Of a DNA stretch of 25,311 nucleotides, positions 8,783 to 16,154 are shown in pieces. Every line of letters begins with the position of its first letter. Position 1 is the first letter of the stretch. Source of the stretch: a virus (taxonomy: Duplodnaviria > Caudoviricetes); the IMG/VR virus record IMGVR_UViG_3300006029_000081, positions 1 to 25,311 of that record; one strand, given 5' to 3'. The position numbers and the translations under genes were made by a program. The notes under the pieces were generated by a model. The model had not been told where the DNA came from. It saw only the letters and a list, made by a program, of their open reading frames with translations, and did no database searches.

Positions 8783-9055
8783 TTATGCCTTTTTATTTTT
8801 TGCTGCAAAATTACGAGCAGCCTCTTTACTTCCAAAGCCCCACTTCTTTAATGCAAGTTTTAATCTAGTTGGTCTGCCTTTTGAATCTTTTAAAGGGCCA
8901 GCCATCCCCCCAAAACGAGCAGCAAAAGACACACGCCTGCCGTCACTCCCAGTCCTTTGGGGGCGTTTAAGATTTGAACCTTCAGTTCTTTTAAAAAATT
9001 CACGACCTTTTTCATTGAGTCCTCCACTTGGGTTTTGATGTTTCTTTGCTACCAT
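8783..9055 (-). CDS. Small basic conserved phage protein
   Basis: HQNPSGGLNEKGR...RRVSFAARFGGM...PTRLKLALKKWG; Lys/Arg-rich. Confidence 0.75.
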   Translation of the reverse strand: MVAKKHQNPSGGLNEKGREFFKRTEGSNLKRPQRTGSDGRRVSFAARFGGMAGPLKDSKGRPTRLKLALKKWGFGSKEAARNFAAKNKKA

Positions 9056-14866: not shown

Positions 14867-14928
14867 GATTACTCCTTAAATAAATGGATTACCTATAAAC
14901 CACCGGAACGTAGTTCCCCTATAAATTA

Positions 14929-14956
14929 AGTATATCTTAGGGATACCCTGTGTCAA
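14929..14956 (-). promoter_or_regulatory. Sigma70 promoter of leftward operon
   Basis: TTGACA-16 nt-TATACT; spacer holds palindrome AGGG-TAT-CCCT. Confidence 0.75.
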
Positions 14957-14959
14957 TAG

Positions 14960-14988
14960 TTGCATTACAATTAGTTTAGTAGTATAGT
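14960..14988 (+). promoter_or_regulatory. Divergent sigma70 promoter pointing into ORF-free region
   Basis: TTGCAT-17 nt-TATAGT, back-to-back with the leftward promoter. Confidence 0.65.
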
Positions 14989-14994
14989 TCTATT

Positions 14995-15232
14995 ACGGGG
15001 CCATAACCCAGCCCACCGGCGGTAGAGCATGACCAATGGTATAAACGAGTTGAATCAGAGGTATCCTTACAGGTACAGTACTCTGGGTATGTAGGTAGAC
15101 GCTACATATAAACATGATAAACGAGAATGCTCACACTCTATGTGTTCTTCCTGTTTTTTAACGGGTGAGATTCTAGTTGTCTGTAGAAACATGTAGGCAA
15201 TAACAGGTTGGCTCTTTTGGTTAACCTTTTTT
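14995..15232 (+). ncRNA. Candidate ~240-nt structured non-coding RNA, family not recognised
   Basis: Own promoter and terminator, 7-8 consecutive helices with G-U pairs favouring the + strand, possible pseudoknot, no credible ORF. Confidence 0.65.
15205..15232 (+). terminator. Rho-independent terminator
   Basis: AGGTTGGC...GTTAACCT stem (two G-U) followed by T-run. Confidence 0.65.
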
Positions 15233-15292
15233 ATAAAAAAAAAGTAAAGCGGTCCTGCTGATCACCGGTTAGGGCTATCTGAAAAACCCAGC

Positions 15293-15352
15293 AAAAAATT
15301 GAGTCAGACCCCCAGGTACAAGGCCAAGGGGTCCCCCCCCAAGGGTGCCGGC
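15293..15352. other. G/C-run element, candidate packaging site/genome terminus
   Basis: AAAAAATT then GACCCC...GGGGTC inverted repeat and a C8 run in an AT-rich genome; coincides with oligonucleotide-usage shift. Confidence 0.45.
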
Positions 15353-15490: not shown

Positions 15491-16096
15491 TTAGCTATTC
15501 AATTCTTTGCGCAAATCCTCGGGCTTCTCACCTTGTAACAATCTTTTCTCTAGGCTGAGCAATTGCTGCTCACTAGACACACACTCAAATAAACTAGTTA
15601 CTTCCCGGTTGTATGATTCCATTGATTGTTTCGAGTCTTTACTCTTCGCTTGTTTGCTTATGTCCTTGTTTTTATTAGTTCGCTTTGCTTTAATCATGCT
15701 ATTAATCTCAGCGTTATTATATGGCTCAATTGGGGCCTGAGCTATCCGGCTTGCATCCTCGTTGCTAATATCATCATCGTATATTATGCGCCGTGTTGCG
15801 CCTTTAATCATCGTATAATGTCCGCTTATCTTTTTTACAATCTTTAATCGTTGTAACCGGCTCATGTGATAACTAACAGTCTGAGAGGTTACTCCCAAAT
15901 CATTAGCGATTCTATTCAACGATACATGCGAGAAGCCCGCCTTATTGCAATAACTTGATAGTACAATTAATACGCGCAAGCTTCCAAGGGTGAGCGGCTT
16001 TTCTAATATATGAAGCGGGACTACTGCGAATTTTCTTTGATCCGGGGCCGGTGTTTTTTCTTTAATCTTTCTTTGCTTTGGCAAGTTATATTCCAT
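15491..16096 (-). CDS. Winged-HTH protein, putative replication initiator
   Basis: FAVVP...LRVLIVLSSY....G...VSLNRIANDLGVTSQTVSYHMSRL: HTH_36-like N-terminus of phage replication proteins. Confidence 0.65.
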   Translation of the reverse strand: MEYNLPKQRKIKEKTPAPDQRKFAVVPLHILEKPLTLGSLRVLIVLSSYCNKAGFSHVSLNRIANDLGVTSQTVSYHMSRLQRLKIVKKISGHYTMIKGATRRIIYDDDISNEDASRIAQAPIEPYNNAEINSMIKAKRTNKNKDISKQAKSKDSKQSMESYNREVTSLFECVSSEQQLLSLEKRLLQGEKPEDLRKELNS

Positions 16097-16124: not shown

Positions 16125-16154
16125 TTGCTTTATTCGATATCTTTCCGGTATAAT
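16125..16154 (+). promoter_or_regulatory. Sigma70 early promoter
   Basis: TTGCTT-18 nt-TATAAT with AT-rich upstream region, followed by a leader hairpin at 16163-16186. Confidence 0.7.

Follow-up and report, generated by a model that had tools for sequence, protein, structure and literature searches.

A conserved phage RNA with two predicted pseudoknots in MEP301-like and other aquatic phages, tentatively read as a trans-acting binder of a host protein

Beside the terminase operon of the phage studied here lies a stretch (positions 14960-15232) that had been read, from sequence alone, as a stand-alone and almost completely folded RNA gene of about 240 nt; is there such an RNA, and what would it do for the phage? 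The window, by which we mean the whole stretch of DNA analyzed (25,311 nt), is an entire IMG/VR record (IMGVR_UViG_3300006029_000081; 73% complete) and belongs to an MEP301-like phage of OM43 bacteria. Its gene order is the same as in Methylophilales phage MEP301, to which the RNA region is 82% identical (BLAST similarity over 14914-15186). Every string quoted in the sequence-only reading, including GGGC/GCCC, CAGAG/CTCTG and TATGTAG/CTACATA, lies where that reading had placed it. Leftward in the window lie TerL (phrog_2), TerS (Terminase_2), SSB, RusA and small genes. The following features surround the RNA:

14929..14956, minus strand: divergent sigma-70-like promoter of the RusA-SSB-TerS-TerL-virion operon (11/12 match)
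14960..14988, plus strand: predicted sigma-70 promoter TTGCAT-17-TATAGT (-35 at 14960-65, 17-nt spacer, -10 at 14983-88)
A14995, plus strand: putative +1, from the promoter spacing
15177..15203, plus strand: 8-codon ORF (TTG...TAA), outside the conserved RNA
15205..15232, plus strand: intrinsic terminator-like hairpin and U run (stem 15205-27), kept in L002-L004
15293..15349, no strand: AAAAAATTGAGT and G/C runs, probable genome-end or pac-like site (putative function), conserved in MEP301-like loci
15491..16096, minus strand: HTH replication-initiator-like (Rep-like) gene, converging on the RNA (weak PHROG matches to replication initiation proteins, E 4.5e-06 to 1e-04)

Several details of these genomes were recorded alongside. 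Imperfect TTTAATCATCGTA repeats lie within the Rep-like gene (15761-15855) and are perhaps origin iterons. In MEP301 a small hypothetical GenBank ORF on the minus strand (gp54; L040:3236-3382) overlaps the 3' end of the RNA; relatives have DUF1289 on the plus strand directly behind the RNA in place of this gp54-type ORF. A basic DUF6321 protein is encoded at 8783-9055 (minus strand), and its cluster occurs in 15/21 carrier records covering all head-module groups; its gene never adjoins the RNA, and it may be a nucleic-acid-binding partner or may simply be common.

Homologue alignments indicate that the feature is real and conserved, with a core of about 180 nt rather than the 240 nt first proposed, as nothing is conserved beyond about 15176. 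The parts of the RNA, all on the plus strand, are these:

14995..15176: conserved non-coding RNA core, from homologue alignments (covariance model match 14995-15174; the window helped to build the model)
14998..15014: P1 hairpin GGGC/GCCC with loop L1 (15002-15010), supported by covariation
15004..15168: PK1, L1 ACCC (15006-09) with tail GGGU (15163-66), supported by compensatory changes
15015..15040: P2, outer stem ACCG/UGGU, internal loop and inner stem GGU/ACC, supported by covariation
15025..15132: PK2, GAGCAU (15025-30) with AUGCUC (15127-32), supported by covariation
15041..15046: first AUAAAC linker, directly 3' of P2, without change in the pattern-seeded sets, in part because the patterns demand it
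15046..15116: P3 domain, variable, with a stem predicted to close it from C15046-G15116 and with P4 (15056-85) and P5 (15088-108)
15116..15126: second linker GAUAAACGAGA, leading into PK2, invariant or above 90%
15150..15165: P7 hairpin CCUGUU/AACGGG, an alternative to PK1 using the same GGG
15163..15176: 3' tail, with AGG(U) resembling an SD in most members and a conserved YUAU behind it

As a single sequence the window folds no better than shuffles (z -0.76 for 14990-15240 and -0.32 for 14995-15176; minus strand z 0.56), so the case rests on homologues; the minimum-energy fold even puts P1 in the wrong register. Across 51 sequences, 100% of the cells of P1 are paired, with G-C to A-U and U-A changes, and the P2 outer stem is 99.5% paired with both sides changed at all 4 pairs. 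The pair closing the P1 loop changes from C-G to G-C in 12/80 clusters. When 80 clusters are set out in an anchored table, the ten column pairs that covary most, among them the P2 inner stem (15021-23 with 15032-34), are all predicted pairs of PK2, P2 or P1. Compensatory changes in homologues, proposed beforehand as a check, are present in P1, P2 and the proposed pseudoknot, and the many G-U pairs noted for the plus strand do fall on one strand in the alignment. Of the near-total folding that had been claimed, P1, P2 and the pseudoknot hold by covariation, but the last hairpin does not. This stretch (TTGTCTGTA/TGTAGGCAA) reads as the 8-codon ORF and its hairpin is broken in the closest relatives (L002-L004). 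The DUF1289 gene lies directly 3' of the RNA in many MEP301-like relatives, and the 8-codon ORF is likely a remnant of a DUF1289 gene start, from a likeness of N-termini judged by eye.

The pairing of GAGCAT with ATGCTC, put forward in the sequence-only reading as a possible pseudoknot, is supported by covariation. In 64 clusters PK2 has a mean of 5.42 Watson-Crick pairs, compared to 2.78 ± 0.15 (maximum 3.30) in 500 partner shuffles. Five of its pairs rank 1, 2, 3, 7 and 8 by corrected mutual information (80 clusters); in that table the register was picked by best pairing, and the partner shuffle is the fair control. Compensatory changes support a second pseudoknot, PK1, which had been overlooked. 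Among the matches listed, 104 of the 108 clusters have A-U at its varying pair, the other 4 have G-C, and 0 are discordant (A-U 45, G-C 6 in the pair count of 51); the G-C form was seen in MEP301-like phages and also in L173, from a different head-module group. A C-G to U-A change was also seen in L679 and L697, found by the model in the terminase-seeded sample. Two further pairs, U15004-A15168 and a mixed one at 15005/15167, extend PK1. This pseudoknot could form within one molecule or between two, as covariation cannot tell these apart. The hairpin over the tail GGG (P7), with at least 2 C-G pairs, is present in 51/105 clusters compared to 24.7 (maximum 34) in shuffles; a looser test did not discriminate (72 vs 59 in shuffles). 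Because the tail GGG is shared by PK1 and P7, the RNA may have two alternative states or a hand-over during folding.

Both AUAAAC strands flank P3. The repeat ATAAACGAG noted earlier does occur twice, but its conserved part is AUAAAC only, the GAG after the first copy being variable; among model-found members the first linker shows one change (AUAAGC). YUAU is found in 53/103 tails compared to 3-12 in later windows, and is degenerate in our window (GAGAUUCUAG). We also noted that tail UU(n)UAU (48/103) is complementary to AUAAA of the linkers (15168-15176 with 15041-46 or 15117-22 in the window), and a third long-range pairing or a triple helix between tail and linker is possible from this complementarity. 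Three loci (L260, L311, L453) share a conserved 18-codon ORF 12 nt after the tail GGG, in a frame other than that of DUF1289, which is a possible leader peptide. About 29 columns of the alignment are invariant. For CGG, AU, CCCA and AUAAAC this is in part a product of the seed patterns, and changes at C2, G4, C15 and one linker base do occur among members found by the model.

The P3 domain ranges from 23 to 147 nt and consists of one hairpin only in L593 and L606; the smallest natural form of the RNA is about 121 nt. Its closing stem was read by eye and from a constrained fold, and the pairs of P4 and P5 are kept through both-side changes in 10 close relatives (the window subfamily). An AGUA...GAA motif, which we take to be a loop-E (sarcin-ricin-like) motif, was seen in the P3 domain of 12/103 members (L179, L206, L333, L461 and the L075 group).

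First relatives were found via Rep-seeded loci, and further ones via pattern scans of IMG/VR and metagenomes. Among the matches listed there are at least 252 distinct full-length homologues in 108 clusters at 85% identity, with lengths between 121 nt and about 300 nt (median 188). The strict full-length rule was passed by 183/239 matches, and 30/129 candidates were left out: 13 matched the pattern by chance and had no 5' motif, and the others were chance matches too, truncated copies or copies with a variant tail. Clusters L077, L099 and L129, which had been mis-parsed, are excluded from counts out of 105 and 103. We estimate the spread at about 350 viral stretches in IMG/VR (one pattern) and about 780 metagenome stretches, the latter including chance matches. 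A divergent subclass (L539:303-, L478, L526), known from metagenome contigs only, has a longer second linker before PK2.

Two samples were independent of the seed patterns. In the Rep-seeded one, the covariance model matches 27/39 loci, and the remaining 12 end before the site. In the TerL-seeded one it matches 31/46 loci with enough flank (46 of the 80 loci listed). Five non-matching TerL-seeded records searched whole gave 0 matches to the model, which could miss a very divergent copy; one of them (G344) is 100% complete and its TerL is 72% identical, and the other four are partial. The RNA is accordingly an accessory with a selected function, strongly kept in the MEP301 clade and not found in these five more distant records. 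One pattern (which misses the G7-C17 variant) gave 4 matches in GTDB, all on MAG contigs of 2-20 kb, and the match in a Nitrosomonadales MAG sits among phage-like genes. The model gave no further full match in two samples of 151 genomes drawn from this MAG's own family and order. Weak chromosomal matches (L663, L664) were rejected, as the 5' domain is absent. Within what was searched, the RNA is phage-restricted.

How the RNA is transcribed bears on its function. The promoter and start near 14995 proposed earlier were not listed by a consensus scan (3/6 matches at -35), but their spacing is conserved in relatives: 44/80 clusters have a sigma-70-like promoter (at least 8/12), and in 37 of these 44 the -10 ends 6-7 nt before the first A, compared to 7% in shuffles. 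In 24/80 clusters there is no own promoter and the RNA follows a terminator-like (attenuator-like) hairpin of another structured element; promoter and hairpin occur together in 0 of 80 members. The proposed terminator is present in the window and kept in L002-L004, but a close terminator is exceptional among relatives, being found in 2/98 scorable clusters by a strict scan that missed some seen by eye (L071, L031). With close terminators this rare, the RNA would usually form the 5' portion of a longer transcript, unless processing occurs. In one search, the public RNA runs with the sequence held only a small share of it. A 247-nt contig in one run (X1; one study, depth 2.2) covers 14984-15229 with no loose end; its start lies 11 nt upstream of the predicted +1, and seven more of the listed phage pieces are covered by X1 too. 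In another run (X5) the contig runs through the promoter. These contigs are no evidence for a discrete transcript.

The upstream element was noted separately. It spans 100-130 nt directly upstream of the RNA and has a promoter, a short hairpin (loop about 7 nt), then a long hairpin bearing a complementary bulge, and a U run; loop and bulge covary by eye (29 members). It was seen in L054, L056, L062, L130, L165, L180, L195, L206, L210, L224, L255, L268, L333, L470, L510, L533, L608 and others. No match in Rfam reached gathering (best 26 bits vs 59, in L206). It is reminiscent of P4 CI or P1 c4 leaders, and it may be another undescribed phage RNA.

A context survey covered 20 fetched records and the window. 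The carriers fall into three major-capsid families (phrog_3437, 9953, 371) and have TerL of phrog_2, phrog_38 and one type without an assigned family; their portal families differ too. What lies behind the RNA is a convergent Rep or TerS gene in some carriers and, in others, DUF1289, Rep, a primase-helicase or a RecE/YqaJ operon; an ORF of at least 30 codons starts 9-21 nt into the tail in 14/80 clusters and not in the window. Two further arrangements were seen: in L173 and L195 (records G030, G031) the RNA gene is antisense between the TerS and TerL genes, and in the group of L052, L078, L104 and L205 a shorter version of the Rep-like HTH gene (about 141-146 aa) lies divergent and upstream of the RNA, heading the late operon. 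The only documented carrier host is OM43; for the other hosts we assume related bacteria.

Our best reading, reached by elimination, keeps the protein decoy among the roles first suggested: a trans-acting non-coding RNA that binds and diverts a host protein, a reading we hold tentatively and at somewhat less than an even chance. In its favor are the covarying fold, the RNA's own promoter at fixed spacing in 44/80 clusters and its lack of a fixed downstream gene, its restriction to phages in what was searched and its retention in the MEP301 clade, the lack of a shared phage partner (capsid and TerL families) and the lack of a recurring perfect antisense target of at least 11 nt in the 20 records and the window. 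As the gene has moved about, sometimes with nothing downstream to regulate, the RNA would be self-contained. A host factor would be its partner because the conserved nucleotides persist while the neighboring phage proteins all change. Four observations weaken this reading: close terminators are rare (2/98), which would usually place the RNA in a longer transcript, the 24/80 clusters behind an attenuator-like element without an own promoter suit a cis role, the tail is the ribosome-binding site in a Rep-coupled subgroup, and ToxN, a candidate target, occurs in 1/401 genomes only.

Were the trans-acting reading correct, transcription would start at A14995, likely early and by the host RNA polymerase, and P1, P2 and P3 would fold in order. 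PK2 would then close over the variable P3 domain, and both AUAAAC strands would pack against the P2/PK2 helices. P7 would at first hold the 3' tail, which the 5' loop would then capture, and the resulting PK1 would lock both ends into a stable, compact particle. The conserved RNA surface would be recognized by a partner common to all hosts, for which a general host factor (RNA polymerase, an RNase or a ribosome component) fits better than a rare defense protein. Where the RNA is coupled to Rep, access to the Rep ribosome-binding site is probably controlled by the PK1/P7 switch as well. A bolder form of this reading, which we consider somewhat unlikely, is an end-locked RNA machine exchanged among unrelated aquatic phages, passing from an open (P7) to a closed or multimeric (PK1) state and acting protein-free on a universal host target, as a catalyst or tight inhibitor; it would be an RNA-only host-takeover factor.

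Alternatively, the RNA could be a cis-acting 5' leader, in which P7 leaves the SD-like AGGU open and PK1 covers it, a ligand or protein thereby setting translation of the next gene (Rep, DUF1289 or others), much as in a translational riboswitch or a plasmid rep pseudoknot switch. PK1 and P7 do compete for the same GGG with both under selection, and a start codon lies 11-17 nt into the tail in 50/103 members compared to 16-36 in later windows. Rep starts 12-16 nt after the GGG in seven loci (L046, L065, L080, L153, L440, L501, L561), its start codon falling in the equivalent of the 3' tail region (15163..15176), and DUF1289 is in frame with the tail TTG in L007, L028 and L030. However, ATG alone is not enriched (19 vs 12-25 in 103 tails), YUAU is kept whatever comes next and also in tails without an SD, and the window and many relatives have a convergent gene or terminator and no real ORF behind the RNA. 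For the Rep-coupled subgroup we regard a cis switch over the SD as likely; it cannot be general, and a leader role is an unlikely account of the family.

A new ribozyme, cutting its own tail after docking on L1 and so freeing itself from the message, or acting on another RNA, is decidedly unlikely. The two pseudoknots, about 29 invariant columns and minimal form of about 121 nt do agree with what is given for biochemically sophisticated RNAs in the available part of PMC5737381, and the context is as inconsistent as for phage ribozymes. Against this, there is no Rfam ribozyme match and no hammerhead CUGAnGA, the RNA exceeds the 50-80 nt expected of self-cleavers (excerpt of PMC10085705), and self-cleavage would be of little use where the RNA starts at +1 with nothing behind it.

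We are very doubtful of a nascent antiterminator like HK022 put, which would stay on its RNA polymerase and cause read-through into distant genes. In every case the RNA heads a transcription unit or lies close to its start, and it usually runs in the same direction as early genes; a host partner alone would be needed, given that MEP301 encodes no RNA or DNA polymerase according to part of its description (PMC8024684). But put is a 65-nt double hairpin (excerpt of PMC8632103), the probable genome end and an antisense gene come next in the window, a promoter-like site belonging to the early operon itself lies at 16125-16154, and in 24/80 clusters the RNA comes after, not before, the terminator-like hairpin.

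The replication role suggested earlier could apply to a subset only. ColE1 RNA II is the model for a primer or R-loop RNA, which here would hybridize at a downstream G-rich site. In many genomes the RNA is beside a Rep-like gene or primase-helicase, and G-rich runs lie behind 18/32 promoter-class members; but such a site is absent behind 58/79, the RNA has three orientations relative to Rep, and in the window a terminator precedes the G-rich site. We hold a primer RNA to be highly improbable.

The position of the RNA near a genome end had also suggested a packaging role by analogy to phi29 pRNA. That position is supported in so far as contigs of MEP301-like relatives stop or start about 0-40 nt after AAAAATTTGAGT, clustering there though not at one nucleotide, which supports a genome end near 15300-15340. 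Besides adjoining this probable end site in the MEP301 clade, the RNA has a three-way junction and two complementary segments, and covariation is blind to whether PK1, which would join such RNAs into rings, is intra- or intermolecular. The packaging role itself is unlikely. The same conserved nucleotides occur across unrelated head modules (three capsid families, at least three terminase types), the carriers have TerS and TerL genes, the three-way junction can be dispensed with, as in L593 and L606, and the complete TerL relative G344 has no match. An end-like site lies within 500 nt downstream in 21/79 scorable clusters and in 0/26 of the attenuator-preceded class. Only phi29-like phages are known to need such a packaging RNA (excerpt of PMC5066667), and a pRNA-like ring is exceedingly improbable here. 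That the conserved structure is single-stranded DNA, an alternative raised for the STAXI motif (excerpt of PMC2864571), is barely credible given the many G-U pairs on one strand, the loop-E-like AGUA/GAA motifs in 12/103 and the promoter at start-site spacing, even though covariation alone does not name the molecule.

The RNA is common in abundant marine and freshwater phages, as the IMG/VR estimate above implies. Structured RNAs this complex are rare and are usually ribozymes, riboswitches or parts of important ribonucleoproteins. If it proves to bind a universal host factor or to be catalytic, phages would have a new means of acting on their hosts with nothing but RNA. The function of the RNA is directly testable with the cultured pair MEP301/OM43 and the 121-nt natural minimal form. 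RNA family and fold appear to be new, and the mode of action may be of a known type. The literature searched, the alignment archives of PMC10690425 and the PMC5737381 supplement excepted, holds no description of it. The accessible part of the MEP301 description (PMC8024684) does not mention a non-coding RNA and that of PMC10580990 mentions no such RNA, a term search of a bioRxiv preprint gave no relevant passage, and the motif strings are absent from 8 supplement files of PMC2864571 (where alignment gaps could hide them) and 1 of PMC10085705. A marine candidate of 84 nt, DNAVirus_2050, found once upstream of DUF1289 (excerpt of PMC10690425), may be a fragment of this RNA.

In agreement with the sequence-only reading, which recognized no family, the window has 0 matches in Rfam 15 at the gathering threshold. 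At E ≤ 10 only hits of 15.3 and 13 bits were found, and 30 homologue loci gave one unrelated tRNA only. Among known systems, a tRNA or tmRNA was rejected (ARAGORN found 0 such genes in the window). Antisense immunity RNAs (c4, P4 CI) have complementary target sites elsewhere in the same phage, and such a role was rejected on the absence of a recurring complement reported above. Known self-cleaving ribozymes gave no Rfam match, and the conserved words differ from the hammerhead core. The H-type pseudoknot aptamers preQ1-I and SAM-II/V have A-rich linkers and, like our RNA, combine a stem and a loop pseudoknot with an A-rich strand immediately 3' of that stem; unlike them, it scores at best 13 bits (gathering 39, wrong strand) and has no metabolic gene downstream. 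Two alternative pairings that overlap or abut an SD are found (PK1 vs P7; AGG in most tails), but the consistent coupled downstream gene of a translational riboswitch is absent (14/80; none in the window).

In the rep switches of ColIb-P9 and IncL/M, a 5' hairpin loop pairs just before the SD in competition with a local hairpin. The 5' loop/tail pairing against a local hairpin is alike here, and Rep is next in one subgroup; unlike those switches, no antisense RNA or conserved leader peptide was found, there is a second pseudoknot with A-rich linkers, and most members are not before rep. HK022 put is likewise a phage RNA heading a transcription unit, using host RNA polymerase and no phage protein partner. 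The present RNA, at 121 nt or more with two pseudoknots, is about three times larger than the 65-nt double hairpin of put, and often has a convergent gene next or is placed after a terminator. As for the placing of put between a promoter and terminators guarding co-directional genes, a promoter is found here in 44/80 clusters, a close terminator in 2/98 (strict scan), and the next gene is often convergent.

Like phi29 pRNA, the RNA is phage-encoded, about 170-180 nt long and near a genome end, with a three-way junction and two complementary segments. Unlike pRNA, it lacks an Rfam match, has two covarying pseudoknots and a different helix order, and is carried by terminase-using podovirus-like phages with unrelated head proteins; pRNA hosts have a terminal protein and the gp16 ATPase, as opposed to TerL phrog_2 and Terminase_2 TerS here. 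The complementary segments are two interlocking loops around a conserved junction in pRNA, and the 5' loop and 3' tail here. pRNA is essential in all phages using its motor, and our RNA was not found in G344 and four partial records.

GOLLD, ROOL, raiA and others are orphan RNAs that likewise stand alone and contain multiple pseudoknots, and phages use some of them (excerpts of PMC5737381 and PMC12286853); ours is much smaller, has no Rfam match and is not beside tRNA arrays (1 tRNA in 30 loci). A precedent for a phage pseudoknot RNA decoy is the pseudo-ToxI of phiTE, which neutralizes a host protein (excerpt of PMC3475682). Unlike it, our RNA is single copy with no tandem repeat family at the locus, and a ToxI mimic was rejected, ToxN being present in 1/401 genomes of the likely host order. 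By analogy, the RNA would work most like an orphan protein-binding phage RNA and partly like the plasmid rep pseudoknot switches.
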